DNA of 64,000 nt from Leucoraja erinacea (lineage: Eukaryota): NCBI RefSeq assembly GCF_028641065.1, contig NC_073379.1, positions 81,034,001 through 81,098,000 of the forward strand, given 5' to 3'. The position numbers and the translations under genes were made by a program. Under the pieces are notes generated by a model. That model had not been told where the DNA came from. It ran no database searches and was given only the letters and a program-made list of their open reading frames with translations. Shown here in pieces: positions 7,533-64,000 of this stretch (the first letter of the stretch is position 1; each line of letters starts with the position of its first letter).

Positions 7533-8104
7533 TAATGGAGACACAAGGAGTTTTCTAACATTTAAAGCGATAAGCTGGAGGTCGATGAAGATTATAGTAA
7601 CGAGTCAGAAGAAGTTTAGATGTGTCTTATTGTTTTTCATCAACAATAAAGAATTTATTCATCAAAAGACTGTATTTTTGAAGACTTATCTGTGAAGAAG
7701 CTCTGAAGGTCTCCGACGGTGAGCTCGCATGTGTATGAAGACTTTTCCCTTAACCATGCAGTCTATTTAGCGGCTAGGGGGAATAATCTCTTGAACAATA
7801 TAAAAATCTGCCGCTACACAGCAATTGGGGCAACACACACTGGTGCTTCAAATGATCGTAACGTTAAATCAAATTAATATCTCCATAACTCCCTTCCATA
7901 CTTATTTCTACTGCTTGAAAACGTTTTAACTCTTTAACTGAATAACACCAACCAACTGATCTAATGCCTGCTGTACATTTTGATGATATGAGACTGCTGG
8001 AAATATTACTGACAATGATGAAACTATTTTGGTTTCATTTTGAGCTCCGGTTATTAATTCTCTATTTGGCATTAGTATTTGATGACCTCAGTGTGCTTTT
8101 AATC

Positions 8105-9477
8105 TGTGAGCTCCAGGACTATTTGGAGTCTGTAGACTGGGCAATGCTCAGGGACTCAGCAACGGACCTGAATGAATACGCCACAGTCGTTACAGACTTC
8201 ATAAAGAAATGTGTGGAGGACTGCATCCCTAAAAAAACCTTCCAAGTGTTTCCCAATCAGAAGCCTTGGATGAACTTTGATATCCGCACTCTTCTGAAGA
8301 CCAGACACTGGGCATTCATGTCTGATGATACAGTGGTCTACAAGAAGTCCAGTTACGACCTTGGTAAGGCCATCAAAAAGGCCAAAGGGGACTTCTGCTC
8401 CAAACTGGAGGATGAGACAGATGTTCAGCAGCTGTGGCGGGGCTTGAATGCACTCACCTCCTGCAAGGCAAGATCAGGAGGCAGCACAAATGTTGGCGTA
8501 GCTTCACTCCCTCTCAAGCTCAATGCATTTTACGCATGCTTTGATAGGGAGAATGTAGCCGGTCATAGTGCGAACTCCATCATCGAGTTCGCTGACGACA
8601 CCACTGTTGTGGAACGTATCACTGATGGGGACGAGTCAGAGTATAGAAGAGAGATCGACCGACTGACCAAATGGTGCCAGCACAATAACCTGGCCCTCAA
8701 CACCAGCAAAACCAAGGAACTGATTGTGGACATTGGAAGGGGTAGGAGGGGGAACCACAGTCCCGTTTATATCAACGGGTCGATGGTGGAAAGGGTCAAG
8801 AGCTTCAAATTCCTGGGCGTGCATATCTCTGAAGATCTTTCCTGGTCCGAAAACACTGATGCAATTATAAAGAAAGCACATCAGCGCCTCTACTTCCTGA
8901 GAAGATTACGGAGAGTCGGTTTGTCAAGGAGGACTCTCTCTAACTTCTACAGGTGCACAGTAGAGAGCATGCTGACTGGTTGCATCGTGGCTTGGTTCGG
9001 CAACTTGAGTGCCCAGGAGCGGCAAAGACTACAAAAAGTAGTAAACACTGCCCAGTCCATCATCGGCTCTGACCTCCCTTCCATCGAGGGGATCTATCGC
9101 AGTCGCTGCCTCAAAAAGGCTGGCAGTATCATCAAGGACCCACACCATCCTAGCCACACACTCATCTCCCCGCTATCTTCAGGTAGAAGGTACAGGAGCC
9201 TGAAGATTGCAATGACCAAGTTCAGGAATTCCCCACAACCATCAGGCTATTAAACTCGGCTCAGACAAAACTCTGAACATTAATAGCCCATTATCTGTTT
9301 ATTTGCACTTTATCAGTTTATTTATTGATGTGTGTATATATTTATATAATGGTATGTGGACACACTGATCTGTTCTGTATTCATGCCTACTATGTTCTGT
9401 TGTGCTGAAGCAAAGCAATAATTTCATTGTCCTATCAGGGGCACATGACAATAAACTCTCTTGACTTGACTTGACTT
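8105..9477 (+). mobile_element. Rex1/Babar-type LINE with in-frame internal deletion (ORF 7964-9253)
   Basis: FPNQKPW, LNAFYACF joined to IEFADDTTVV, KTKELIVD, FKFLGVHISEDLSW; AATAAA plus (TTGAC)n tail at 9450-9477. Confidence 0.9.
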
Positions 9478-9685: not shown

Positions 9686-10122
9686 AAAGTTTCACCTCTC
9701 AGTAGATCATAAAATAACACAATCAACACGGTCAATGTGAGATACAGTGTTTATTCATATTCGACAAAATAAAAAGACGACTTCTTGCACATATTGAGAG
9801 AAGGTGCATCACACCAAACAACATTTGTCTAAAAAAACACAGATTATTCTTCAGCTCATTAAAGAGCTCGGGTGAAAAAAACGAATATAGTGTGTGACAA
9901 CAAAGTAACATCATTTGTGCCACGTGATTAACTACACTACAGTCCACGATGTTCATTCGGGAAAGATCGGGAGACGGACAAGTCACTCGCACAAATGACA
10001 GAATTGCCGAGTACCGTGGGAACTCTTTACTCTACTCCCGTTATATCGTGTGATATCGTGCTAGACCACGACCACTCCACTCGGGCTACATCTTGCGTCA
10101 AGTCGCCCCGTGAAAACGTGCC

Positions 10123-10690
10123 ATTATCAGGCAACTGAACCATCTTCTCACCAACTATAGAGTGGTCCTGACCTCCCATCTACCTCATTGGAGACTTTCA
10201 AACTATCTTTAATTTAATTTTATTAAATTTTACCTTACACCAAATGTTTTACCCTTTATCCTGCATCTGTGCACTGTGGATGGCTTGATTGTAGCCATGT
10301 ATAGTGTTTTTTGCTAACTGAACAGCAAGCAACAAAAACCCTTTCACTGCCTGGCTCCACAGCACGACTGCAGGTGTTACAACCGTGAACACTTTCCTGC
10401 TGTTCACCTTTTCCCTGCCCTGACATCTGTCAAAATGATGAGGTTACGTTCAAATTAGCAGAGTATGAAGATAAGCTAACAGATCTGTTTCCCTCTCCCA
10501 CTACTAAATAGTGGGGTTATAGTCCAAATCTGCAGAAGGCGTTCTATAATCTCTAGAAATGTGGCACTGAGGTTTCAAGGATAGATGTTTGAATCTTTTC
10601 ACTGTACCTCGGTGCACATGACAACAATAAACTAAGGTAAACTAAAGTAAACTATACTAAACTAAATTAAACTAAACTCAAACTAAACAA
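10123..10690 (+). mobile_element. LINE 3' UTR with (TAAAC)n-type tail, interrupted by a 250-bp insert
   Basis: Homologous to the tail at 20815-21040 (ttttcactgtacct..gtgacaataaa..(taaac)n). Confidence 0.6.
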
Positions 10691-11013
10691 AAGCAAAATA
10701 AATCTTGATTTAATAAATAACAAGTATTCGGTTTTCTTACATTTTAAGCCTGCACAGCCCAGACATGTTAGGCACATTTGAGAAATCATTTTGTTTTGGC
10801 TGCTTCAGCTTTGGTACATTTGGTCCATTCAAACCAAGATTGGCGTGCCTTATTAAGCTTCTATTATTCTCATGGTTAATAGTGGGAACATTTGTAAGGA
10901 GAGGGGCAGAAATTGACAAGTGGTGTGCCCATTGTAGGCACTAAATGAATGCTTGGCAGCAGTGATTCAGGTACCCATAGTACTACATTTGATCTCCTCA
11001 CAATATATGCCAG

Positions 11014-11671
11014 TGTAACGGGTATAGCTTGGACCCAATAGCAGCACAGAATCAGGCAGGTATAATTAGTAATGAACCTTATTACGATACTGTAACACAG
11101 AGTAGTAACACAGGAATGGGTACACCGTACTCACACAGAGGCTCAGGACTGAGCGAGGGTTCCGAAGAGGGGCAGGCAGGAGACGTAGTCGGGGTAGCGG
11201 AAGGTCCAGTAACCAGGAGATCCAACACACGATGCAAACAAACCAGCGAGGGACAGACGAAAGGAGAGTCGAAGCCAGGCAGGTAGTCGAGGAGTCGTTG
11301 CAGGGATAGACCAAACAGCCCAGCTCAGGAGAGAGGCAGACAGAAACCAGGAGGTCGGGGACAGAAGGCTGAGGTGCTATCCGGGAAGACGACAGGACAG
11401 AATGGTCAGGGGCAGGCAGGTTTGAATCCGTGTAGGCAGTCGGGAAATCGCTGGAGAGTCTTGCATGAATGCTGAGAACAATCTGACACTGTGTGAATGG
11501 TGAGGAGAGTCTATATACCGGGTTAATAGGTGATCAGAGGCAACTGAGTGCAACAGGTGAGGAGAGATAGGCTGATGAGAGGGGAGTGGCAGGCAGGTGA
11601 GGAGAAGGAGGGACCGAAGGAAAAGTACTGGGAGGTGGTGGATGAGAATGAGGAGAGGGCGGACTGTGACA
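11014..11671 (-). mobile_element. Solo LTR, probably Ty3/Gypsy
   Basis: TGTAAC...GTGACA termini with perfect 5-bp TSD GCCAG (11009-11013 and 11672-11676); TATA-like GTATATAG on the minus strand near 11515. Confidence 0.85.
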
Positions 11672-11905
11672 GCCAGGAGCCATTTTCAAGTTGCTCTAGG
11701 CCAGGTGTTAGGGACACACTCTTCAGTCTTCTATATATGATAACTAGACTAAGTGGGACCCATTGGGTCCCATTCTCACACGGGAGAGCTGGTCCCCCAA
11801 TGCAACATTCCACCTCCACCAATTCCAATATTGGTGGCCAGTGGGGAGGGGGAGGGTCTTTTTGGAGCGCTAGTGTTGGTGTTGTGGACCAAAGGGACTG
11901 GTTCT

Positions 11906-12075
11906 CACCTGAAGCAATGAAATCCTGGAATATTTAATTTCCAATCACAGCCCTCCTGCTTCACTGTTTCACTGATCGCCACAACATCATACTTCCAGGT
12001 GTCAATCCAGGCTCTAAGTTCATCCACCTTTCTTACAATGCTCCTAGCATTAAAATATACACATTTAAGAAACCC
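11906..12075 (-). pseudogene. Start of CR1 ORF2 (APE endonuclease N-terminus), truncated
   Basis: LKCVYFNARSIVRKVDELRAWIDTWKYDVVAISET...IPGFHCFR in ORF 11905-12396. Confidence 0.85.
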
Positions 12076-12212
12076 ACCCTCTCTTATTCTCTGTTTATTG
12101 TCTTTTTCTTCTCTCTCCCCTACATTTTGGGTCAGAGTGCTACCATTCTCTGCCTCCTCCCTCACACACTGACTGCTAGCTTTCCCAATTTGAGTCCCTC
12201 CCCCCAACCATA

Positions 12213-13148
12213 CTAGTTTAAAGTCTCCCCAGTAGCCTTTGCAAATCTCCCCATCAGGATATTGGTCCCTCTCGAGTTCAAGTGCAACCCGTCCTTTCTG
12301 TACAGGTCGCACCTTCCCCAAAAGAGGTCCCAATGATCCAGAAACTTGAATCCATACCCACTGCACCAGTCCCTCCTCCACGCATTTATCCTCCACCTCG
12401 CTCCATTCCTACTCTCACTGTCGCGTGGCACAGGCAGTAATCCTGAGATTGTTACCTTTGCAGCCCTTCTCCTTAACTCTCTACCTAACTCCCTAAATTC
12501 TTCTTTCAGGACCTCTTCTCTTTTTTTACCTATGTTGTTGGTACCTATATGTACCACAACCTCAGGCTCCTCTCCCTCCCATTTCAGGATATCTTGGACA
12601 CGTTCAGACACATCCCTGACCCTGGCACCAGGGAGGCAAACTACCATCCGGGTCTCCTGTCTGCGTCCACAGAATCGCCTATCCGACCCCCTGACTATAG
12701 AGTCCCCTATTACAATTGCCCTCCTCTTCTTTTCCTTACCCTTCTGAGCAACAGGACCAGTCTTTGTGCCAGAGGCCCGGCCGCTGTCACTGCCCCCAGG
12801 TAGGCTGTTTCCCCCACCCTTACTCAAGCATGAGTACTTATTTTCAAGGTGTACAGCCACCGGGGTACTCACCAGTCCCTGCCTCTGCCCGTTGCCCTTC
12901 CTAACTGTGACCCAGTTTTCTGTCTCCCGTGGTCTTGTAGTGACCACCTCCCTGTAACTCCTTTCTATGACCTCCTCGCTCTCCCTGAGCAGACAGAGGT
13001 CATCGAGTTGCTGCTCCAGGTTCCTGACACGGTCCCTTAGGAGCCCCAACTCGACGTACCTGTCGCAGATGTGGACATCTGGAGGGCACTCAGACTCCAT
13101 GACCTCCCACATCTGACATCCAGAACAGTAAACTGCCCTGGCACTCAT
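12213..13148 (-). CDS. CR1 ORF1 protein (zinc finger/leucine zipper plus SGNH esterase-like domain), uninterrupted
   Basis: CSGC..HIC.R.., leucine heptads, IGDSIVRG, CLPGA, VHIGTNN, DGLHLN blocks; open from MSARAV to stop. Confidence 0.9.
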   Translation of the reverse strand: MSARAVYCSGCQMWEVMESECPPDVHICDRYVELGLLRDRVRNLEQQLDDLCLLRESEEVIERSYREVVTTRPRETENWVTVRKGNGQRQGLVSTPVAVHLENKYSCLSKGGGNSLPGGSDSGRASGTKTGPVAQKGKEKKRRAIVIGDSIVRGSDRRFCGRRQETRMVVCLPGARVRDVSERVQDILKWEGEEPEVVVHIGTNNIGKKREEVLKEEFRELGRELRRRAAKVTISGLLPVPRDSESRNGARWRINAWRRDWCSGYGFKFLDHWDLFWGRCDLYRKDGLHLNSRGTNILMGRFAKATGETLN

Positions 13149-13290
13149 TCTCCCCCTTATCCAAATACAATACAAAGCCTTACCCGGGATACAAGCCAAT
13201 CAGCTGCTTCCTCTGGTCCTCTTCCACCAATCAGAGGCTTCCACCAGAATCCTTCTCTGGAAGTGAGATGGAACGTTGCAGATTTGGGTA

Positions 13291-13653
13291 ACTCACAGCT
13301 CCAGGTAACTCCTCCTCGCACCAACGGCTCCCCGGGCCTCTGTAGAAGCAAGCCCCACGCTGTTTTTATACTCACAGCTCCAGGTAACTCCTCCTCGCAC
13401 CAACGGCTCCCCGGGCCTCTGTAGAAGCAAGCCCCGCGCTGTTTTTATACTCACAGCTCCAGGTAACTCCTCCTCGCACCAACGGCTCCCCGGGCCTCTG
13501 TAGAAGCAAGCCCCGCGCTGTTTTTATACTCACAGCTCCAGGTAACTCCTCCTCGCACCAACGGCTCCCCGGGCCTCTGTAGAAGCAAGCCCCGCGCTGT
13601 TTTTATACTCACAGCTCCAGGTAACTCCTCCTCGCACCAACGGCCCCCCGGGC
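13291..13653 (-). repeat. 79-bp tandem array (about 4.6 near-identical copies) upstream of CR1 ORF1
   Basis: Units start at 13291, 13370, 13449, 13528 and 13607; each full unit has TATAAAAA on the minus strand. Confidence 0.95.
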
Positions 13654-14520
13654 TTCAGGGATTTATTCTCCTAGCACCCGGAAGGAGCGTTACCTTCATG
13701 GTTGACAGGCGAGAAGACCAATCTGCTGATCCCACGGTTTTTTAAACTTGCATAACTTTTCTATTATTTCACCGATCGGAACAAAACTTGAGGCGCTTGG
13801 AGCAGAGGAGTACGGTGAGTAAGATGGCAAAAAAATCATAGCAATATAGGGTAGTGTTTTTGTGCAAATGTATTTACCACATAGACCAGAAGTGGTCAAG
13901 GTGAGAGTTTTAGTATTAGTATAGATGAAGAGCCTAATGCCTGTTGTAGGAACATATTGGCACTGCGTACACGTTACACCTATCCTGCAGACACCAAAGA
14001 CAAGCATTCCCAATTAGAGGTCTGCAGCTTACCAAAATCCACAAGCAGGTCTCAAGAGGTTCACCAAAAGATAAGAGGGAGAAATCTGGCTCCATAACAG
14101 GAATGCAGGTGTTACCAACTGTGCTACCATTCCCACTGTTCACATATTCCCTGCCCTGACATCTGCTAAAAGGATGAGTTCATGTTCAAATTAGCTACAT
14201 TTGAAGATGCTAAAGGATCTGTTTCGCTCACCCTCCTTTTTTAAAATAGTGTGGTTATATTTACATTAGTCCAAACTGCAGAAAGCATTCTATAATCTAT
14301 AGAAATTTGGCGCTGAAGTATCAAGTACAGCTAACTGGATTGGCCAATTATATCACTCTACCTTTCTTTCCAAAGCTAGAGGTACTGCATTATAATTCGT
14401 AAAGGTATACCATTTAAACATAAAGCCACTATAGCAGATAAGGAGGGTAGGGGTACATCATAGTATCTGGGGAGATATATTCTATCCCACTTACTATGGT
14501 GAATATTTACACTCCCAACT

Positions 14521-15145
14521 TTGATAACCATATAATAACCATATAACCATATAACAATTACAGCACAGAAACAGGCCATCTCGACCCTTCTAGTCCGTGC
14601 CGAACACATAATCTCCCCTAGTCCCATATACCTGCGCTCAGACCATAACCCTCCATTCCCTTCCCATCCATATAACTATCCAATTTATTTTTAAATGATA
14701 AAAATGAACCTGCCTCCACCACCTTCACTGGAAGCTCATTCCACACAGCTACCACTCTCTGAGTAAAGAAGTTCCCCCCTCATGTTACCCCTAAACTTCA
14801 GCCCCTAATTCTCATGTCATGTCCCCTTGTTTGAATCTTCCCTACTCTCAGTGGGAAAAGCTTTTCCACGTCAACTCTGTCTATCCCTCTCATCATTTTA
14901 AAAACCTCTATCAAGTCCCCCCTTAACCTTCTGCGCTCCAAAGAATAAAGCCCTAACTTGTTCAACCTTTCTCTGTAACTTAGTTGCTGAAACCCAGGCA
15001 ACATTCTAGTAAATCTCCTCTGTACTCTCTCTATTTTGTTGACATCCTTCCTATAATTAGGCGACCAAAATTGTACGCCATACTCCAGAAATGGCCTCAC
15101 CAATGCCTTGTACAATTTTAACATTACATCCCAACTTCTATACTA
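14521..15145 (-). mobile_element. Young 5'-truncated CR1 LINE
   Basis: ORF 14798-15124 (LYKALVRPFLEYGVQFWSP..LERRRLRGDLIEVFK..TRGH); 8-bp tandem tail (ATATGGTT)n. Confidence 0.9.
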
Positions 15146-15146
15146 T

Positions 15147-17236
15147 GATAACCCACAATTTTTTAATAAAATAATTAATATAATCTCAGATTCCACCCAG
15201 CAAAATCTGATAATTGGAGGAGATTTAAATTGTGTTCTGGATCAATAACTGGATAAATATTCACAACAATGGAGATATAATACAAAATCAAAATCTAGCG
15301 AACTCCTAAACACGTATATAAAAAATACAAATGTAACAGACGTATGGAGGATTGTGAATCCATCTGGAAGAGAATATTCCTTCTATTCAGCTGTGCATAA
15401 AACGTATACACGTATTGATTATTTTCTGGTGGACACAAAATTAATACCTTTTACAACAAATACCAAATATCATAATAATATTATTTCTGATCATTCTCCT
15501 CTAACTTTCTCCCTAAAACTACATGTTATGTACAATAGAAAAACGTTTAGGAGATTTAATCCCCAAATATTAACTGACCCAGCTTGCTGTGAATATCTGA
15601 AGCAACAGATGGAATTGTTTTATGACACAAATGATACACCAGGTATTTCGGCTTCGTTATTATGGAAATCTTTTAAGGCCTTTATTAGAGGTTCTATTAT
15701 CTCATATCAAGCATATCAAGATAAAAATAATAGGATGGAACAACTGGAATTAGAAGAACAGATCAGACAGCTGGATTCAGAAAATGCTATAGATCCTTCT
15801 ATGGATAAACAAAATAAGATAGCAGTATTAAAATTCAAGTTAAATCAAATTCTCTCTGCAAGAGTTATCAGGCTATTTCAAATTACTAAACAGAAAAACT
15901 TTGAATTCGGCGACAAACCGCATAAACTTCTGGCACGCCAGTTGAGAAAAATGGAAAAAGATCATACTATTCAAAAAATTAGATCAGAAAAGGTGAGTTG
16001 TTTACACTCCCTAAAGATATTGACAAAAGATTGTTACAATTCTATCAAAATTAATACACATCTAAAACTTCAGTAGAAACGATAAAAATTAAAAACTTCC
16101 TCGACAATTGCAATCTTCCATCACTTAATGTTGCAGAACGTGAAGAATTAGGAGCACAGATCACAATAAAAGAAATTGAAGAGACTATTAATTCACTGAA
16201 TAAAGGTAAAACGCCAGGCCCAGACTGATTTAGTAATGAATTTTATTAAAAAAATTATGATTTAATCTCCCCGCATTTACAAGCCCTTTATATACACACA
16301 TTTAAAGAACAGACGCAACCACAAACTTTAGCCAAATCAACTATTACACTGATACCCAAAAAAGATAAAGATCTCGAAGAATCGGGATCATATAGAGCAA
16401 TAACTCTGCTAAATACATATCAGGAAATATTAGCTAAAACCCTGGCAAGAAGATTAAGCAAATACGTTAGTAAATTAATAGATTCTGATCAAACTGGGTT
16501 TATACCCAAGAGACAATCAATCAACAACTTGAGACGCATGTTTCATATAATGCACTCATATAGAATGATAAAAGAAGACTTACCAATTATTTCATTAGAT
16601 GCAGAAAAAGCATTTGACCAAGTAGAATGGAAATATCTTTTTACAGTATTGCAAAAATTTCAATTAGGAGAAAACTTTATTTCATGGATAAAGTTGTTAT
16701 ATGACAAGCCGACTGCCAGAATACTGACTAATCAAACACTCTCACCTAATTTTCAGTTATCCAGGGGCAATAGACAGGGCTGTGCATTATCACCTCTGTT
16801 ATTTTCCCTTGCGATTGAAGCTTTAGCAGAAAGCATAAGAGTACATCCGAATATTCATGGCTATAATACTAAATATTCTAACAATAAAATATCATTGTAT
16901 GCAGATGATGTACTACTATATATCACCAATTCTCAAGTTAGTATTCCAAACATACTAAATCTTATAGAGGAATTCGATTCCTTTTCAGGATATAGAATAA
17001 ACTGGAACAAAAGTGAAATTATGTCAATAAAACCTCAAGATCCGACACACTTTCTAAAATTTCCTTTTAGAATTGCTATGGAAAAAATTAAATATCTAGG
17101 AGTTTACGTAACTAGAAAATACACTTCATTATTTCAAGCAAACTTTCCACACTTAATTACTAAACTAAATGCCCTTATTCAATTTTGGAAAACATTTCCG
17201 ATTTCCCTCATAGGTAGAATAAATGCCATAAAGATG
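15147..17236 (+). mobile_element. L1-clade ORF2 fragment (endonuclease C-terminus to RT), disrupted
   Basis: IIGGDLN, RIDYFL, ISDHSP, SLDAEKAFD, RQGCALSPLLF, LYADD motifs; stops and frameshifts at about 16000-16250. Confidence 0.9.
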
Positions 17237-17239
17237 ATG

Positions 17240-17540
17240 AGGACAGCACATTGACATTGTGGTATAGTTGCTGCCTTACAGCTCCAGGGACCTAGGTTTG
17301 ATCCTGACTGCAGGTGTTGTCTGTACTGATATTGTATATTTTCCCTGTGACAGCATGGGTTTTCTCTGGGTGCTCCGGTTTCCTCCCACATTCCAAAGAC
17401 GTGAAGGTTGTAGGTTAATTGGCTTGTATAAAAAATGTTCCTGGAGTGTAGGATAGAACTAATGCATGGGTGATCATTGGTCGGCGCGGACTCAGTGGGC
17501 AAAGGTGTTTCCATGCTGAATCTCAACACTAAACTAAACT
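17240..17540 (+). mobile_element. V-SINE (HE1-like)
   Basis: tRNA-like head, V-domain, (TAAAC)n tail. Confidence 0.85.
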
Positions 17541-24809: not shown

Positions 24810-25750
24810 CAAGTCAAGTCAAGTTGGAGTTTATAATGTCACATACACTACGAGATGTGCAGTGAAATGAAAGTGGCAATGCTCGCGGACACAACAAAAC
24901 AACCAAAAGGCCTAGATAACGTGAATGTGGCGAGGACACATATTATTTTACATAATAAATAATAGAAGGTAAAAACGTTCTGTACAGTTAGTCCCTGGTG
25001 AGAAAGGCGTTTACAGTCCGAATTGCCTCTGGGAAAAACTCCTTCTCAACCTCTCCGTTCTCACTGCATGGCAACGGAGGCGTTTGCCTGACCGTAGCGG
25101 CTGGAACACATCTGTTGCAGGGGTGGAAGAGGAGAGAAAGCATTTTGTTGTTGAATGATGGAGTTGCACCTCCTGTTGTATAAATGCAGGGGGGGTGAGT
25201 GAAGTTCCCATAGTGCGTATGGCCGAACGCACTACTCTCTGCAGAGCCTTCTTGTCCTTGGCAGAGCAATTCCCGAACCAGATGGTAATGTTCCCGGACA
25301 AGATGCTTTCCACCGCCGCTGCGTAGAAGCACTGGAGGATCCTTGGAGACACTCTGAATTTCCTCAATTGCCTGAGGTGGTAAAGGCGCTGCCTTGCCTT
25401 ACTCACGAGTGCTGAGGCGTGTGATGACCATGTCATATCCTCAGAGATGTGGACTCCCAGATATTTAAAACAGTTCACCCTATCCACAGGATCCCCATTT
25501 ATACTCAATGGAGTGTACGTCCTCGGATGATGTGCCCTCCTAAAGTCCATGATCAGCTCCTTCGTTTTTTTGATGTTCAAGAGGAGACTGTTCTCCTGGC
25601 ACCAGAGTGCTAGATCAGCCACCTCCTCCCGGTAGGCCCTCTCATCATTGTCTGAGATCAGGCCCACCACCACAGTGTCATCAGCAAACTTAATTATTGA
25701 ATTGGAGCTGAACCTAGCCACACAGTCATGTGTGTACAGGGAGTACAATA
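24810..25750 (-). mobile_element. 5'-truncated Rex1/Babar-type LINE with TSD
   Basis: ORF 25011-25748 (YSLYTHDC..IKFADDT..FKYLGVHISED); TSD GGTC(C)AGAGGAGGTTTACGAGAAT at 24787-24809 and 25751-25774. Confidence 0.9.
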
Positions 25751-26339
25751 GGTCCAGAGGAGGTTTACGAGAATAATTCCAGGGATGATTGGAGCGTTTA
25801 ATGGCTCTGGGCCTCTACTTGTTGGAGTTTAGAGGGATGGAATGGGATTTCATTGACACCTACCAAATAATAAAAGGCCTAGATTACGTGAATGTGGCGA
25901 GGACATTTCCAGTAGTGGGAGAGTCTGGGACAAGAGTGTACAGCCTCAGAATAGTAAGATGTACCTTTGAAATGGAGATAAGGAGGAATTTCTTTAGCCA
26001 TAGGGTAGTGAATCTGTGGAATTCATTGGCACAGACGATGGTGGAGGCCGCCATTGGGTGTTTTTTTTAACAGAGATTGAAAACATGATTTTTAAGGTCA
26101 TCAAAAATTATGGAGAGAAAGCAGAAGAATGGGGTTGAGATGGTAAAATAGATCAGCCATGATTGTATGGCGGAGCAATCTCAATGAATCGAATAGCCTA
26201 AAGGGCCTGTCCCACGTACGTGTCCTTGGCATGCAAATTACGCAACCTCGTGGTCGCGTTGCGCCGCGATGATCCCGTGAAGGTTGGGCACGATTTCATG
26301 CGTATGCACAGCCGCCTGGAGTGCATGGTGTCATTTGAA

Positions 26340-26530: not shown

Positions 26531-27364
26531 AATTTTCTTGGCCCCGCTCTGGGAGTAGAAGTGGGGGCGGAACCGAACCGCAACGGCCGTGAGCCCCAGG
26601 CTGAGTTCGGCGATCGTTTGCCTGCTTCTGCTGTTGTTGAAGGTGAGACTTTGCGTCGCGCCAGGGTCTTGGGCCTATCCCACTTTGGCCGTCAGTTCCA
26701 CAACAAGCCTTTGTCACGCAAAGATTTTGTTCACTACAAAAATTTCGGAACCCCGCGCGATTTCGCGCACAACTACATACCCCTCCACGCTTCTAAGTGG
26801 GACCAGCCCCGCATGGCCATACGATGCCCGTGCACCTCAACGAGACCATGAGGTCGTGTAATTTGCGTGCCAAAGACATGTAAGTGGGACAGGTCCTTTA
26901 TTCTGCTCCAAAGTCTTATGGTCTTATTTGGAAACAATAAAAAGTTCTAACCTAGTCATTAACAGAGCAGAAGATGATGTAAAATTTGTGAGCACTGTGC
27001 TAAAGAGTGCATGAGCTAAATTCATGCGGTGTGGGAAATGGGTAATTGAGTTGCCTCCAGAGTTGAAAATAAAAGGACTAGAATAATGAATAGAGGAGGA
27101 TTATCTCTGATCCACCCAGGAACGACAGTTAAAGAAGAAGTTAAGATGTTTTGAGCTTGGGAATAAAGTTTTAAAATTGAGCTTTTACATTTAGTAGTAG
27201 TAAATGCTTTCGGAGGCCAGGAATAAAATGGGGAGTTAATACCTAAACATGGCTGAGGTTTCCACGATGCACATGTAGTGAAGGCTACCACTGTTCTTAT
27301 GTGGACAAATTGGACATTGAATGAAACAGAAAAAAAACAGAAAAAAAAGAGAAAAAGGAAGAAT

Positions 27365-30300
27365 CAAAACCCCTCTAATCTATTCCTTATAAAGGCTTCT
27401 TTAAAAACCTTGCTTAGCCAGGGAGACAATAAACTGGAAAAATACTTTAAAAATTCTACTGTAAACCCATCTAAACCGGGAGCTTTACCAGAATTCATTG
27501 AAAGGATTGCTTTCTGTATTCCTTCTTCCGTGATGGGTTCATCTAACAACAGAGACTCATTATATGGTAAATTTGGCAAGCTCAGTCTCTTTAAAAACTC
27601 ATGTATTATATTGGAATCAGTAGGAAATTCTGATTGGTATAGGGACGTATAAAATTCCTGATAGGATTTATTAATTTTGTCATGGTCTACAGTTGGTGTA
27701 CCATCTCGTTTACTCACTTTAGTAATCTGACGTTTGGCCGACACGGCTTTCAACTGATTAACGAGTAATTTACCAGATTTTTTGCCTTGTATATAAAATT
27801 GATTTTTGGTTTTAAGTAGCTGGTTCCCAATCGGTGATACTAATAACAAATCATATCTCAATTGAAGTTCAACTCTATTCTTAGAGAGCTCTAAACTAGG
27901 AGCTTTGGAATATTTTTTTATCAATTTCTTTAATCTCGTCAGCCAATATACATTTTTTTAAAAGTTTTTTTTAATCTCGTGGAGTATGAAATAATTTGTC
28001 CAAATATATGCCTTAAAAGCATCCCAGACCTCACCATTGGATATTTCTTCAGTAGAGTTCGTCAAGAAGAAGAAAGCAATCTGATCTTTAATAAAATTAA
28101 CAAAATTTAAATCTTGAAGCAAAGTAGCATTCAATCATCATTGTTTAGCACTAAACTTGGAATCAGGTAGTTCGATTGATAGTTTCAATGGTGCGTGATC
28201 AGAAATAGCAATTGCATCATACTCACTTGCAGTGACCAATGAAGCTGGCCGAGAATCTATTATAAAGTAGTCAATCCTAGAATAACTATGATATACATGA
28301 GAAAAAAAAGAAAATTCTTTGTCATTTGCGTGTAAGAATCTCCAAACTTCTAACATTCCAGTGTCAAGTAAAAAAGAATTGATAAAACTAGCCGATTTTT
28401 TTGGAAGCACATGATCAGATGATGAGATCCGTCAATCAAGGGGTTCAAACAACAGTTGGAATCTCCACCCATTATTAAAAGTGTTCATTTAAATTAGGAA
28501 ACGATGCAATTAACTGTTTAAAAACTAGGGGTGATCAATATTTGGTGCATAAACATTCACCATAGCAACTGTGGCTATAAAGAACACCAGTAATCACCAA
28601 AAATCCACCATATGGATCAGAAATTCTTTCATAATGAACAAACAGAATTGAGGAGTCAATAAAAATAAAGCCTGTGAATTTGAATGAAACTGCTGTCCTC
28701 TCCAAAACTTGAAAAATCGTTGATTGTCATCTTGCCTTACATGAGTTTCCTGAATAAAAATAATCTGAGCATTTAGTCTACGAAGAACTTATTTTCCTCT
28801 TAAGGGATGGTTCAAGCCATTCACATTCCATGAAAGGAAGTTAAAAACTTTATCTATATTGTTTGTAAAAATCATGTGGGATGTAAAGAGTTAATTTCTT
28901 AAAGCCTAATAGTTCATGATACTGGAAGATGAAAAATCTAGGGCGGAGCCAGAAGTTACGACATTTCAGACATTTTTGTAGTTCATATTCTGCACAAATG
29001 AAAACAATAAGTAAGAAACAAAAGACGCCTCACCGCCACCCACCAATGTAAAACCCGAAACTGACCAATCAACAGTCAGTAAGCTACCTAATCCCTTCCC
29101 TACCGCCATCTCTCCTAGCAACAGCACCCAGTGTAAAAAAAAAGCATATTTGCCACTCAATAGCTAAAACATGTTCAATGTTGTAGTTTGAGAGAAAAAA
29201 AAACATGTTGGCAATGGAGCTGAAGAGCAAGAGCTACTTCATATTATTCATCCAAGGTCAAAATATGAAAAACAGGAACTGCGTTCACTTAATTTGTCTA
29301 AAGACAGGGGGAAAACAAATTCTTTCAATTTTAAGAATAGAAAAACTAACAGAGAAATTCTTAAAAATTAATATATATAAAAGAAAAACCAACTCATCCA
29401 GTAATTCTTAATCATTACCAAACGATGTATTGTCAAAATAGGGACAGTAAATCTCCAATTATAACTTAATCAGCTATCAATTACTCCCCTTCACCCTCGT
29501 AAGCCTCCAGAAAGCTGGAAGCGTCTTGAGGATTGTTGAAAAATCGAATGAAAGCTGGGCACAACTTTTTCTTAAACAGATCAGGCATTACATTATGAAA
29601 AGACTTTCTTATTTCCAAAAGCTCGTAACTATAATCAGGAACAAACCGAAACTTGCATTGTTCATATTCAACCACGCTCAACTTTTTTGCTGCCTGGAGA
29701 ATATTCTCCTTCATTTGCAAGAAGTGAAACTGAACAATCAAATGTCTCGGTTTATTACCATATTTCTTCCCAATCCTGTGTGCGATATCCAAAAATGGAA
29801 GATTTTCATGGTGCTCAATGTTGAAAGTCTCCTTTATCATTTTAAAGCATATTTTATAACATTATCTCCTTCTTGACATTCTGGCAGTTCAGCCGACGGC
29901 TTCTGTTTTCCAGATCCATACTCAGAGATCCATACAGCAGAAATTCAGTCGACAGCTTCTGTTTTCCAGATCCATATTTTTGATCTTGTATTGCTGGAGT
30001 GCTCGAGTATTTTCATTCATTCTCCGTTCCAGTTTTTCAATCTTCAAATCTCTCTCCTGGCCCAGGGTTCGCAAGTTATCAATTTGTTCCTTTTGTTCAC
30101 GTTCATCTTGTAACACAATCAGCTTGGCTTGAACTTCCTTGAATTTGCTCGAAACTCCTTTCACCATTTCTTCCAAACTGCAAAATCTTGTTTTCATTTC
30201 ATTTTTCAGTTCATCGTTCATTTTCGATATTGCTTCTAAAATACTAGAGTCAGAAGCTGTGGCTGTGGCTTTCCCATGTTCCTTCCTTGGGGAGCCTCCT

Positions 30301-30480
30301 TTCCCTCTTGTCTCCATCCTTTTCACGATTAAGGCGTATAAAAGTGTTATTAACGCTCTATGAAAAGTTAGACCATGCCTTGAAGTCAAGTAATGACAAG
30401 TAACATTGAAAGAGTGGTAAGTGAAATTTAAAAGTTAAGGGAGCAAAGAATTTGCAACCTTTACAACATGCTGCCACTAG
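27365..30480 (-). mobile_element. L1-clade LINE, 5' half (ORF1, spacer, ORF2 endonuclease to RT start), degenerate
   Basis: ORF1 coiled coil with DLENRS, IAHR, PR.LIVQFH, PDYS; ORF2 SWNVNGL, IQETH, RIDYF, ISDHAP, SGKAPGLDGF. Confidence 0.85.
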
Positions 30481-40279: not shown

Positions 40280-40400
40280 AGTTGGAAGCAAACTGTTGTA
40301 TTTAATTTCTTCAGGTGTGACCTTGAAACTGAAATTGTGGACTATTTATTGGTTGCTTGGTGATTATTTAAAATGCTTCATTTTCAGATGAGCCTAAAGC

Positions 40401-42164
40401 ATGGAAATGACTGAACCAATGTGCGTTCTAGACATCTACATGGAAGACTCCAAGAAAGACATAACTAAGTCGGATAAAGAGAGCATCCTGCCACTTTGTT
40501 CCACCTCACAAGATGCAAGTTCTTCCAGCCATATTATTTCAGAGCCAGATAAAGAAAGCAAAGCAGTCCAAGCAAGTGACAGCAAAATATGTTCATTTCC
40601 ACCACTGTTGGCATCTGAGAAAGAATCGCCTATTAAATTTAAAGGAGAGTTTCCATTTTCATCATTCCTACCTGAAAGAAAGACTCCACTCTCATCTATA
40701 GAAGAGAATGAACAGTCATGCCACAGAGCGACTCCATCCCCAACTCATAGAGAAATTCCACTCTCTTCCCATAATGAAACTTCACTCTGCTTCCCAACAA
40801 TGGCTCCATCTCCAGTGCAAAGAACTACTCCAGTCCCTTTCCAAAGTGAAACTCCATCCACCTTCCCTAGAGAGACTCCAAACATAGTTCGAGCACTGAC
40901 TCCACTCCCCTTTCAAAGCATGAATCCACTCAGTTTCAGACCATCGACTCCATTACCAGCCCACAGTGGGAGTCTACACCCCTCCCCCAGAGACACTCCT
41001 GCCTCGATGGAAGGAGCAACTCCAATGTTTTCCCAAAGTGAGTCTTCAGGCCCCTTACCAAGAGGGTCTCCAACTCCAACTCCAACTTCAACTTCAACCA
41101 CACCTTCCTTACAAAACAACAATCCACCCTGTTTCCGAACACCTACTCCATTTAATTTCAAAAGTGAAACTCCAGTTAATGTCCCAAGTGAGCCTCCTAC
41201 CTCATTGGAAGAAGCAACCCCACTCTCTTTCCAAAATGAGACACCATCCTCCAGAACAGCAACTCCAGCCCGCGGTCCATCATCAACATCATTCCTTTCC
41301 CAAAGGGAGACTACAGTCCCCTTCCCAAGAAGGTCTCCAACACCACTCTCTCTCCGAAGTGACACTCCAATCTGTTTAACCACAGCTACTCCGTTTTTCT
41401 TGCAATGTCAGACTACTGACTTTTTGCAAAGAGAGGCCTTAACCACACTTCATAGAGCAACTTCACTGGCTTTTCCAAATGAAACTATATCCTCTATCCA
41501 GATGGACGCACAAGCCCAAGTGCAAGGAACAACTCCGTTCCCATTTCAATTTGGGACTCCACTCTCTTTTGAAAGCAGAACTCTGTTCTCTTTGGATCCA
41601 GACTCTGTGTTTTTTTCCGGGGGAGAGTCAGGAGTGTCATCTGATATAGAGTCATCTTACCCCTCAATAAGTGGCACACCATTTCATCTGGAAAGAGAAA
41701 CTCAGACATCTCCCATTGGTCTGAGATCTGTCTGCACAGACATTATTCAGAGTGCTTGGTATGGTATCGCGGACAGGCCACACATGTTGCAAGCTGGGTT
41801 TAGAGGTCTGCAAAGCACAGTGCAGTTTGATACAGCAGAAAATCGAGAAGTTATCAAGGTTTTTGTAACAAATGTAAAAGATACTATTCTTTCATCTCTC
41901 AACACAGTGAACACCACTGTGCAAACAACAAGGACAAACATGACAGATAGTCTCTGCAATTTAGTTGTTGGTGTAGCGTCTCAGGTTGGGGAACTTTTCA
42001 GGCCACAGGCAGCATGCTCCACGACTCTCATGGAAGATCCTGAACAAATGGCTGGTACCCTTTCAGAAGAAAACATTCAACCCATGGCAAATCCAACAAA
42101 TTCTGAACAGGGTATGCATTCTAGCAATTCCTCTGAATGGACCGATTCTAGTCAAATGCAATGA
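40401..42164 (+). CDS. Uncharacterised 587-aa Ser/Thr/Pro-rich protein (or large exon) with about 40 degenerate octapeptide repeats
   Basis: 1764-bp open frame with no TE motifs in otherwise stop-rich DNA; 8-residue periodicity of T/S-P; acceptor ttttcag at 40381-40387; possible donor at 42111/42112. Confidence 0.8.
   Translation: MEMTEPMCVLDIYMEDSKKDITKSDKESILPLCSTSQDASSSSHIISEPDKESKAVQASDSKICSFPPLLASEKESPIKFKGEFPFSSFLPERKTPLSSIEENEQSCHRATPSPTHREIPLSSHNETSLCFPTMAPSPVQRTTPVPFQSETPSTFPRETPNIVRALTPLPFQSMNPLSFRPSTPLPAHSGSLHPSPRDTPASMEGATPMFSQSESSGPLPRGSPTPTPTSTSTTPSLQNNNPPCFRTPTPFNFKSETPVNVPSEPPTSLEEATPLSFQNETPSSRTATPARGPSSTSFLSQRETTVPFPRRSPTPLSLRSDTPICLTTATPFFLQCQTTDFLQREALTTLHRATSLAFPNETISSIQMDAQAQVQGTTPFPFQFGTPLSFESRTLFSLDPDSVFFSGGESGVSSDIESSYPSISGTPFHLERETQTSPIGLRSVCTDIIQSAWYGIADRPHMLQAGFRGLQSTVQFDTAENREVIKVFVTNVKDTILSSLNTVNTTVQTTRTNMTDSLCNLVVGVASQVGELFRPQAACSTTLMEDPEQMAGTLSEENIQPMANPTNSEQGMHSSNSSEWTDSSQMQ
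40677..41720 (+). repeat. Degenerate 24-nt coding tandem repeat
   Basis: Pro at residues 96,112,120,136,144,152,160,168,176,184,200,208,224, then 242-282 and 315-331 in steps of 8, and 379,387; recurring ACTCCA. Confidence 0.85.
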
Positions 42165-62314: not shown

Positions 62315-63490
62315 TACCCTGTCTACAGGCAGAAACTAAAATCTTTTGAGCATGTGGTCAGAACAATGAAAAGGTGGACAAGCGAGGGTATTGAAAACTT
62401 ACAGTCCTGATTTGCCTGCACTGATTGGAATGTCTTCAGGGAAGCAACCACAAGCCTCGATGAATATACAGACAACGTGACATCATATGTCAGCTTTTGT
62501 AAGGACAGTTGCATTCCCCTTAGAACCCAGATTTGGTTCAACAATGACAAGCCCTGGTTTACAGCAGAACTCAGACAGATCCGCCAATCTAAAGATGAGG
62601 CCCACACGAGCAGGGATGCAGACCTCTATAAGCAGGCCAAGTACAAGCTGAGATGAGGAATCAGAGCTGCCAAAGAAAGGTACTCTGAGAAGTTGAGGAG
62701 CAAGTTCTCAGCTAATGACTCTTCTTCAGTTTGCAAGAAATCACCAGCTACAAGAAGAAAACCCCCCGCTCCTTGGACAATCGTCACCTGACCAAGTTCT
62801 ACTGCAGGTTTGATAAACAGAAACATAACCCTGGTACCCCAATCCGGAAATCTCCAGTGGTTCCTCTTCTACCCTCAAGCTCTGTGCTGAGCAACTGGCA
62901 CCGGTCTACACAGACATTTTCAACCAGTCCCTGCAAACCTGTACTTCCCCTGCCTGTTTCAAAGTCTCCACCATTGTCCCTGTACCCAGAAAGACAAGGA
63001 TTACTGGTCTTAATGACTGCAGGTTTGTCGCACTGACCTATGTAGTCAAGAAGACCCTTGAAAGACTTGTGATGGCCCAGCTGAAAAATATCACAAACCC
63101 TTGGGCTTCTGCAGTTTGCATACCAGGCCAATAGATCAGTGGATGAAGCAGTCAACCTAGGCCTGCACTTCATCCTCCAGCAAGGATTTTGTTTGTGGAT
63201 TTTAGCTCTGCATTTAACACCAATGTGCCAGAGCTACTACACTCCAAATTCTCCCAGTTGATTGTGCCTGAACCCCTCTGTCAGTGGATCACCAACTTCC
63301 TGACAGACAGGAAGCAGCATGTGAGGCTGGGAAAGCACATCTCGGACCCGCAGACCCTCAGCATTGGAGCACCACAAGGCTGCGTACTGTCCCCTCTCCT
63401 GCCCCCTCTCCTGTCCCCTCTCCTGTCCCCTCTCCTTTCTACACCAATGGCCACACCTCCACAGACTCCTCTGCCAAGCTTCTCAAGTTT
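62315..63490 (+). mobile_element. Rex1/Babar-type LINE internal fragment (endonuclease end to RT)
   Basis: [51 protein letters not shown]. Confidence 0.8.
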
Positions 63491-63554
63491 GTTGAGTCAC
63501 GAGTCACGAGTCACGAGTCATGAGAGATTTTAGCCAACCTATTGGTCCTGAGTT

Positions 63555-64000
63555 GAGTCAAGTCAAGAGAGTTTATTAACACGTGTCCCAGATAGGACAA
63601 TGAAATTCTTGCTTGCTGCAGCACGACAGAATATTGTAGGCATAAATACAGAACAGATCAGTGTGTCCATGTACTGTAAAATATATATACACACATAAAT
63701 AAACAGATAAAGTGCAATTACAGTTGAGAGTTTGTTTGAAGTTGTGTTTAATAGTCTGATGGTTGTGGGGAAGTAGCTGTTCCTGAACCTGGATGTTGCA
63801 GATTTCAGGCTCCTGCACCTTCTACCTGATGGCAGCGGAGAGATGAGTGTGTGGCCAGGATGGTGTGGGTCCTTGATGATGTTGGCAGCCTTTTTGAGGC
63901 AGCGACTGCGATAGATCTTCTCGATGGTAGGGAGGTAACAGCCGATGATGGACTGGGCAGTGTTTACTACTTTTTGCAGCCTTTTCCGCTCTTGGATTGC
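63555..64000 (-). mobile_element. Rex1/Babar-type LINE 3' end (runs off window)
   Basis: Reverse of RKRLQKVVNTAQSIIG..CLKKAANIIKDPHHPGH; 3' UTR like 9240-9477; (TTGAC)n tail. Confidence 0.85.

Follow-up and report, generated by a model that had tools for sequence, protein, structure and literature searches.

The front portion of a CR1 retrotransposon within a non-autonomous Helitron of the skate Leucoraja erinacea, a candidate tailless retrocopy

A small rolling-circle transposon in Leucoraja erinacea hosts the front portion of a CR1 retrotransposon. The composite, a non-autonomous Helitron of 2182 bp, occupies 11744..13925 on the minus strand of the window, by which we mean the whole stretch of 64,000 nt that was analysed. 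Read along the minus strand, it consists of a TA-rich, Helitron-like 5' part of 269 bp that starts with TC (13657..13925), a CR1 piece of 1751 bp whose 5' end lies inside a tandem array (11906..13656), and a Helitron 3' part of 162 bp (11744..11905). A first-pass annotation of this DNA had described Helitron hallmarks (A/TC, an 8-bp hairpin and CTAG/T, with slashes marking boundaries) bracketing a co-oriented CR1 segment that carries a 79-bp array, an open ORF1 and about 55 codons of ORF2 and that lacks a CR1 3' end. These features were all found where they had been placed, and the identifications as Helitron and CR1 hold; the stop comes after exactly 55 codons of endonuclease, and 11906 is not followed by a CR1 3' end on the minus strand. 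We put at about one in two the chance that the composite arose when a tailless CR1 retrocopy entered a non-autonomous Helitron already in place, without any deletion.

The outer parts have the features of a canonical non-autonomous Helitron, in which, as described in the available text of PMC4067079, a 3' CTRR is preceded at about 11 nt by a palindrome of 16-20 nt. The composite starts with 5' TC and ends in CTAG (11747-11744, with the CTAG/T boundary at 11744/11743 on the minus strand), 10 nt before which lies a 19-nt subterminal hairpin with an 8-bp stem and a 3-nt loop (11754..11772, minus strand). The A at 13926 and the T at 11743 (minus strand) together form a clean A/T insertion site, and the host site is not duplicated. 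Judged from the letters, the end motif is weak and stands only modestly above chance: a loose scan gave five matches in the window and two to five in each of six simulated windows, matches with a stem of at least 8 numbered three in the window vs zero to two in six simulated windows, and the fold of the hairpin (z = -1.93) was equalled by 9 of 200 shuffles. Exact-pattern scans for the Helitron ends returned 0 matches in the genome, viral and metagenome contig collections.

Reads place the 3' terminus independently of these motifs. At 11743, 57 RNA reads lose their match and run into flanks that are mutually unrelated (agreement 0.47); because the reads stop there with unrelated flanks, the 3' terminus of a dispersed element is confirmed at this position. 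The T that follows the terminus is common to other family copies, as seen in the reads that come loose at 11743, and depth jumps on passing from the flank into the element. Summed depth over 11723-11844 reaches 2e5-9e5 in three related species; with the loose reads, this marks the Helitron 3' end as interspersed and multicopy among differing flanks. Within the 3' part, loose-end consensuses were obtained at 11814, 11846 and 11852, and similarity to the Helitron family extends to about 11885, some 20 bp short of the junction with CR1. The assignment of 13657..13925 as the 5' part of the Helitron that ends at 11744 is probable, and its A/TC at 13926/13925 is, by sequence, the sole TA-rich candidate of this kind across 13657-14520. 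No coding capacity was recognised in this part, and Rfam gave 0 matches in 10000-16000. An extended internal repeat shared by the two Helitron halves was sought and rejected, with none found at word size 7. Protein translations of the empty Helitron junction, comprising one frame of the 3' part and one across the 5' junction, likewise gave 0 matches.

The CR1 piece begins in a 79-bp tandem array (13291..13656, minus strand) of 4.6 copies at 99% identity, the first of them partial, which forms part of the CR1 5' UTR. The array has a GC content of 60%, a CpG observed/expected ratio of 0.76 (vs 0.39 in the window) and TATAAA in four units, and it is a putative internal promoter of CR1. Its tandem joints (13366 to 13291) recur in contigs of related genomes, one of which has a contig that spans the array and the adjoining UTR (13190-13339). 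Satellite cargo of the Helitron was considered as a source of the array and rejected, since other copies join the array to CR1 UTR. On the same homology, the 5' junction probably lies at 13656/13657. The remaining 5' UTR (13149..13290, minus strand) shows family-level depth throughout and, when translated, resembles the N-terminal extension of an L. erinacea protein, P0121.

At its other end the piece stops shortly after ORF2 begins. Past the ORF1 stop, 102 codons remain open (11906..12212, minus strand), the last 55 of which form the N-terminal part of the APE endonuclease and share 34% identity over 47 aa with the ORF2 start of a full-length CR1-type locus (L001). The stop codon that closes this stub arises from the junction itself. 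The junction at 11905/11906 is exact: loose ends at 11906 occur in 4/4 runs, in 26, 27 and 25 contigs and in 125 reads, with an agreement of 0.95-0.99. Their consensus, read by eye, stays in the frame of ORF2 and reaches the next motif of the endonuclease; ordinary CR1 copies continue into ORF2 where the composite breaks. The junction lies about 130 bp from the subterminal hairpin and creates a splice-donor-like CAG/GTGAGA. Reverse transcriptase and most of the endonuclease are absent from the CR1 piece, as are the CR1 3' stem-loop and terminal repeat from the composite, which makes the piece a fragment and no competent element; with no reverse transcriptase and no 3' end, it is unable to retrotranspose. 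A neighbouring CR1 3' fragment (14530-15145) was rejected as the missing 3' end, being upstream on the minus strand and having its own clean 8-bp target-site duplication inside an L1-type ORF2.

Between the UTR and the ORF2 stub lies ORF1 (12213..13148, minus strand), which encodes a 311-aa SGNH esterase recognised by Pfam (Lipase_GDSL_2, E 4.4e-14), by PDB entry 4c1b, the ORF1 esterase of ZfL2-1 (E 8.5e-28), and by protein relatives. When the catalytic triad and oxyanion residues defined for ZfL2-1 ORF1p (PMC3905857, available text) are mapped onto it, S150, G174, N204, D286 and H289 are all kept, which places the protein with the esterase-type ORF1s of the CR1 clade. It also has a stretch that, by analogy, is probably a coiled coil, and a CxxC..CxxC motif whose last Cys is replaced by Tyr. 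The replaced residue, C31, is presumably a zinc ligand; C31Y is private to this copy, and C stands there in 19/19 close relatives. The nearest relatives are the L. erinacea proteins P0121 (94% identical) and P0001 (90%), followed by proteins of other rays and of sharks. The exact ORF1 protein had no entry in the protein collection searched, and the annotated L. erinacea proteins include at least 13 of ORF1 type that belong to this family. Locus searches by ORF1 recovered two distant CR1-type loci (L001 and L002, 32-35%) and one bacterial esterase locus (L003), with nothing viral among them.

How far this ORF1 may be called intact is a matter of degree. The first-pass annotation's description of it as intact stands for the open frame and the retained catalytic residues and falls short at conserved sites, where the copy carries private changes: besides C31Y, it departs from nearly unanimous relatives at P71T, D114N and residues 258 and 299, and it differs from the read majority of related species at, among others, D205N. 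Among the sites listed as differing from that majority, 7/18 are synonymous vs a neutral expectation of 26-30% (p 0.16-0.28); this test is weak, as it covers 40 of 510 difference rows and takes its majority from other species. The chance that ORF1 would stay open after 18-45 random changes is 0.16-0.54. Selection on ORF1 was therefore rejected as an explanation, the substitution spectrum being non-significant and compatible with neutral decay. In the RNA run, 28 of 1647 reads are at least 99% identical to the copy, with both strands about equally represented, which attests to transcription of the family and does not distinguish this copy.

Both edges of the CR1 piece are abutted by a short direct repeat. 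Its 5' copy (13657..13669, minus strand) touches the first CR1 base and its 3' copy (11893..11905, minus strand) the last, and the two would be the copies of a 13-bp target-site duplication (TSD). They match at 10/13 positions (77%), or 11/14 when a shared G is included, and sit flush with the CR1 piece on either side. Both ends of the piece had been set without use of the repeat, from array homology up to 13656 and from the loose ends at 11906. Random pairs reach the same score in 403 of 200,000 trials (0.002) in exact register and in 280 of 20,000 when a slack of +/-2 is allowed; with the 5' flank held fixed, 122 of 63,954 positions do so, and the score is maximal on the true junction diagonal. 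In our judgement the repeat is probably a decayed TSD. Three mismatches in 13 bp count against this, being many for a copy about 2% from its family (p 0.014 at 2% and 0.13 at 5% divergence per copy), though they are clustered, as are changes nearby at 11960-11964.

The CR1 piece and its putative TSD pass a published screen for tailless retrocopies, which asks for a 5'-complete, 3'-truncated copy between TSDs that are 8-35 nt long and 70% or more identical (PMC5322556, available text); the copy also lacks a tail. Here 5'-complete means that the piece starts inside the 5' array, and the true start site of CR1 may lie elsewhere. The length of the repeat is close to the peak of 14-16 bp given for TSDs of full-length L1 in the accessible part of PMC2912911. 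Other observations count against a tailless origin. The bases upstream of the target are GG, vs the TT of the L1 target consensus; where internal priming predicts a match between target and RNA, the junction shows an overlap of 1 nt, and the match of 5 nt sits 4 nt further on. Of six further CR1-like fragments examined in the window, one had a clear TSD. Neither of the options in the first-pass annotation, capture by the Helitron or insertion followed by deletion, predicts the repeat, which suggests a third way: a CR1 copy already truncated at its 3' end was inserted directly.

Under this favoured reading, a single copy of a CR1 RNA would have been retrotransposed into a resident, non-autonomous Helitron some 420 bp long, a member of a skate family of very high abundance. 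Reverse transcription would have started at an internal point of the RNA and not at its 3' end, roughly 300 nt beyond the stop codon of ORF1, and run from there to the 5' end. The product would be a 5'-complete, 3'-truncated copy between TSDs of 13-14 bp that later decayed, and no loss of Helitron DNA would be required. The enzyme may have been CR1 ORF2 or, going by the length of the duplication, an L1-type ORF2 acting in trans; like the identity of the TSD, internal priming and the enzyme are what we infer. The window also contains L1-type elements, with Transposase_22 and RVT_1 matches; these were counted in favour of retroposition, as was the 8-bp TSD of the neighbouring CR1 3' fragment. 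Insertion into a resident Helitron predicts that the Helitron part should seem older, and divergence is 5/114 in the Helitron part vs 29/1464 (about 2%) in the CR1 part (p = 0.09). The open ORF1 would reflect a young copy and not selection. Both Helitron ends are kept, so that the composite could in principle be moved by an autonomous Helitron. The reading assumes that the 13-mer is single in the empty Helitron.

Unlikely, in our estimation, is the alternative given in the first-pass annotation, the insertion of a full-length CR1 followed by deletion of everything from 11906 on, with or without some Helitron DNA, in which case the 13-mer would be a chance match or an old TSD. Deletion is a common source of 3'-truncated LINEs, the junction offers 1-3 nt of possible microhomology, and the three mismatches weaken the TSD; the low depth near the junction described below also fits this history as well as it fits the favoured one. 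A deletion breakpoint should be arbitrary, however, and one that falls within a base of a 10/13 repeat has a chance of 0.002-0.014. Similarity to the Helitron family, which stops only some 20 bp short of the junction, also speaks against this history.

Copy number bears on whether the composite has moved as a unit. Reads were compared over 11540-13369 in four of the 24 runs listed, as contig sets of three organisms (A, B and C) and one RNA run of B. The runs share at most 0.59 of the window's words and are therefore probably from other species, so that an amplification specific to the window's lineage would be missed. In the three related species, summed depth is 2e5-2e6 for CR1 and falls to 1068, 1313 and 3834 at 11857, inside the Helitron and 49 bp from the junction, or 0.58-0.95% of the depth at 11787 (Helitron 3' end) and 0.22-0.48% of that at 11918 (CR1). 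The window's own letter at 11857 has a depth of 63, 84 and 263 vs 18-57 for a single flank contig, where contig depth is no measure of copy number. The flank at 11715 is represented by one contig in each of two runs. No contig piece bridges 11905/11906 among the 24 listed of 54,427, and no part of the composite has a second copy in the 64,000-nt window. A high-copy chimera shared with related species is thus unlikely. The composite may exist in a few copies or have undergone a burst confined to the window's lineage, and in the source genome we infer a single copy.

These counts weigh on an equally doubtful alternative, DNA-level capture of the CR1 5' part by the Helitron, through filler DNA, templated repair or end bypass, and its subsequent copying as a small subfamily. 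The first-pass annotation had proposed that a promoter and ORF1 cassette was captured and could disperse; with no second copy in the window and a junction-side depth below 1% of the two families, that proposal found no support. Co-orientation and 5' bias are typical of captures, as in 17/19 Xenopus fragments (PMC12001565, available text), both Helitron ends look intact, and all esterase catalytic residues are retained. SGNH hydrolases carried by fish Helitrons are known (texim; PMC4021074, available text), the ORF1-type proteins annotated in L. erinacea number at least 13, and the depth of the window's letter at 11857 leaves room for a few copies. Set against this are the depth near the junction, which stays below 1% of family depth in 3/3 DNA runs, and the missing bridge among the 24 pieces listed. 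The spectrum of ORF1 changes, C31Y and D205N included, is compatible with neutrality, stand-alone ORF1 annotations are to be expected from ordinary CR1 copies, and a duplication flush with both ends is not predicted by capture.

A combined history, in which tailless retroposition was followed by rolling-circle spread as a small lineage-specific subfamily with the CR1 promoter and a catalytically intact esterase ORF1, appears quite unlikely. It is very unlikely that the 269-bp stretch before the array is foreign to the Helitron, as extra CR1 5' sequence or another element, and that a truncated CR1 merely abuts a Helitron 3' fragment: the signal given by A/TC is weak, and no database copy was found of the 5' part, which is read from the letters, but this is the sole TA-rich A/TC candidate in 860 bp, the two ends jointly give a clean A/T site, and the 13-mer links both halves to one original sequence.

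Several known systems resemble the skate composite in part. Bat (Myotis) Helitrons, HelibatN424 and others, are non-autonomous canonical elements that carry TSD-flanked retroposed inserts, as well as retrotransposon pieces, and that were later amplified (PMC4224331, available text). Their inserts are described there as poly(A)-tailed, 5'-truncated mRNAs, with 118 copies over four cases, whereas the skate insert is a 5'-complete, tailless LINE piece for which amplification is unsupported. Tailless retropseudogenes, among which 3'-truncated L1 copies with TSDs are included, share the 5'-complete, 3'-truncated and tail-free structure and the TSD of 8-35 nt at 70% identity or more (PMC5322556, PMC2912911, both in their available text). 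In the accessible part of the survey they are products of the L1 machinery, mostly from small RNAs, and come from therians and the anole only (PMC5322556); the skate copy differs in its CR1 RNA template, its cartilaginous fish host, the lack of TT and a priming match that lies 4 nt off.

The insert itself resembles canonical CR1 elements in its SGNH esterase ORF1, its ORF2 that opens with APE and its 5' repeat array (PMC3905857, PMC13343379, available text), and it differs from them in that reverse transcriptase, the 3' end and the greater part of the endonuclease are missing. Canonical CR1s of vertebrates either have esterase ORF1s or group with them, and some ORF1-less members of the CR1 group are described with 5' repeat arrays (PMC13343379, available text). 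Fish texim genes also encode an SGNH hydrolase that is related to the CR1 esterase and tied to a Helitron; in the available text of PMC4021074 they contain introns, make up a clade of their own, are found next to Helitron coding regions, and are multicopy and testis-expressed, in contrast to the skate ORF1, which is an intronless, recent CR1 ORF1 inside a non-coding Helitron. For the Helentron endonuclease, it has been proposed that a CR1-type element was retrotransposed into, or transduced by, a Helitron (PMC4067079, available text), an event of the same class as the one favoured for the skate composite. In Helentrons, as described there, RepHel is fused to a complete endonuclease and the termini are of another kind, where the skate composite has a 55-codon stub and no RepHel. 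In the literature searched, to which Repbase, Dfam and supplements did not belong, there was no report of the skate composite, nor of any Helitron holding a tailless CR1.

The setting makes such nesting unsurprising. The 64,000-nt window is dense with vertebrate retroelements, and elements of the CR1 group account for 22-34% of the genome in sharks and rays (PMC13343379, available text); given this share and a very abundant Helitron family, nesting is expected and a single case is ordinary. Tailless retrocopies are already known, as is retroposition into Helitrons, and the locus is a tidy new example and no new system. It would gain greater weight only if the chimera were multicopy or ORF1 were expressed from the composite locus. 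Should a mobilised cassette prove true, it would offer a caught-in-the-act model for the gain of CR1-type domains by Helitrons, such as the Helentron endonuclease and texim-like esterases, and a way in which the 5' bias seen in Helitron captures could arise. That bias is called undeciphered in the available text of PMC12001565, since inserts made by LINEs are normally 5'-truncated. If the duplication is real, tailless retroposition would extend to a CR1 template in cartilaginous fish, and the question is raised whether 5'-biased, co-oriented Helitron "captures" may in part be tailless retrocopies, marked by TSDs.

Where the CR1 endonuclease stub meets the 3' part of the Helitron, the junction forms a splice-donor-like sequence, CAG/GTGAGA (11903-11911, minus strand), right at the ORF2 stop, and none of the joints listed for the reads and contigs of related species leaves from this site. 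Nearby, at 11960-11964, the copy departs from the CR1 family majority, as seen in the related-species reads and contigs, by four changes within five bases, and through this cluster the endonuclease motif reads V-K where W-L is usual.

On the flank, separated by 72 bp from where the Helitron ends at its 3' side, lies a 658-bp solo LTR-like element (11014-11671) recognized by its TG...CA ends and a perfect 5-bp target-site duplication (TSD; 11009-11013 and 11672-11676), with high family depth in the related-species reads and contigs compared over 11540-13369. Read on the plus strand, the left flank at 11729-11743 itself resembles a TA-rich TC start, yet T precedes it instead of A, and the likeness is probably due to chance.

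On the minus strand at 14522-15153, a 5'-truncated CR1 3' fragment sits within an L1-type ORF2 whose frame continues on both sides of the insert; the fragment's 8-bp TSD overlaps its terminal repeat. The interval 14400-17254 holds a plus-strand ORF2 of L1/Tx1 type that is broken (Pfam RVT_1, E = 3e-38). Elsewhere in the window, ORF1 remnants and ORF2 pieces mark an L1-type element (27364-30434, minus strand; Transposase_22, E = 8e-4). Reverse transcriptase-bearing LINE fragments, which we take to be Rex1-like, occur at 729-1502, 7946-9253, 25011-25814, and 63147-63995, with the C-terminal part of one matching Pfam ALKBH8_N (7964-9250 being the part tested). A Ser/Thr/Pro-rich open frame of 588 codons with 24-bp repeats (40398-42164) has no Pfam match and may represent a large host exon.

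A protein labelled as a Pseudomonas aeruginosa SGNH hydrolase (P0023) is 57% identical to the composite's CR1 ORF1; its contig is 4 kb, and it probably represents host DNA within a bacterial assembly. Finally, a metagenome contig carries a near full-length CR1-type element (L001:595-4433) in which both the esterase ORF1 and ORF2 are open.
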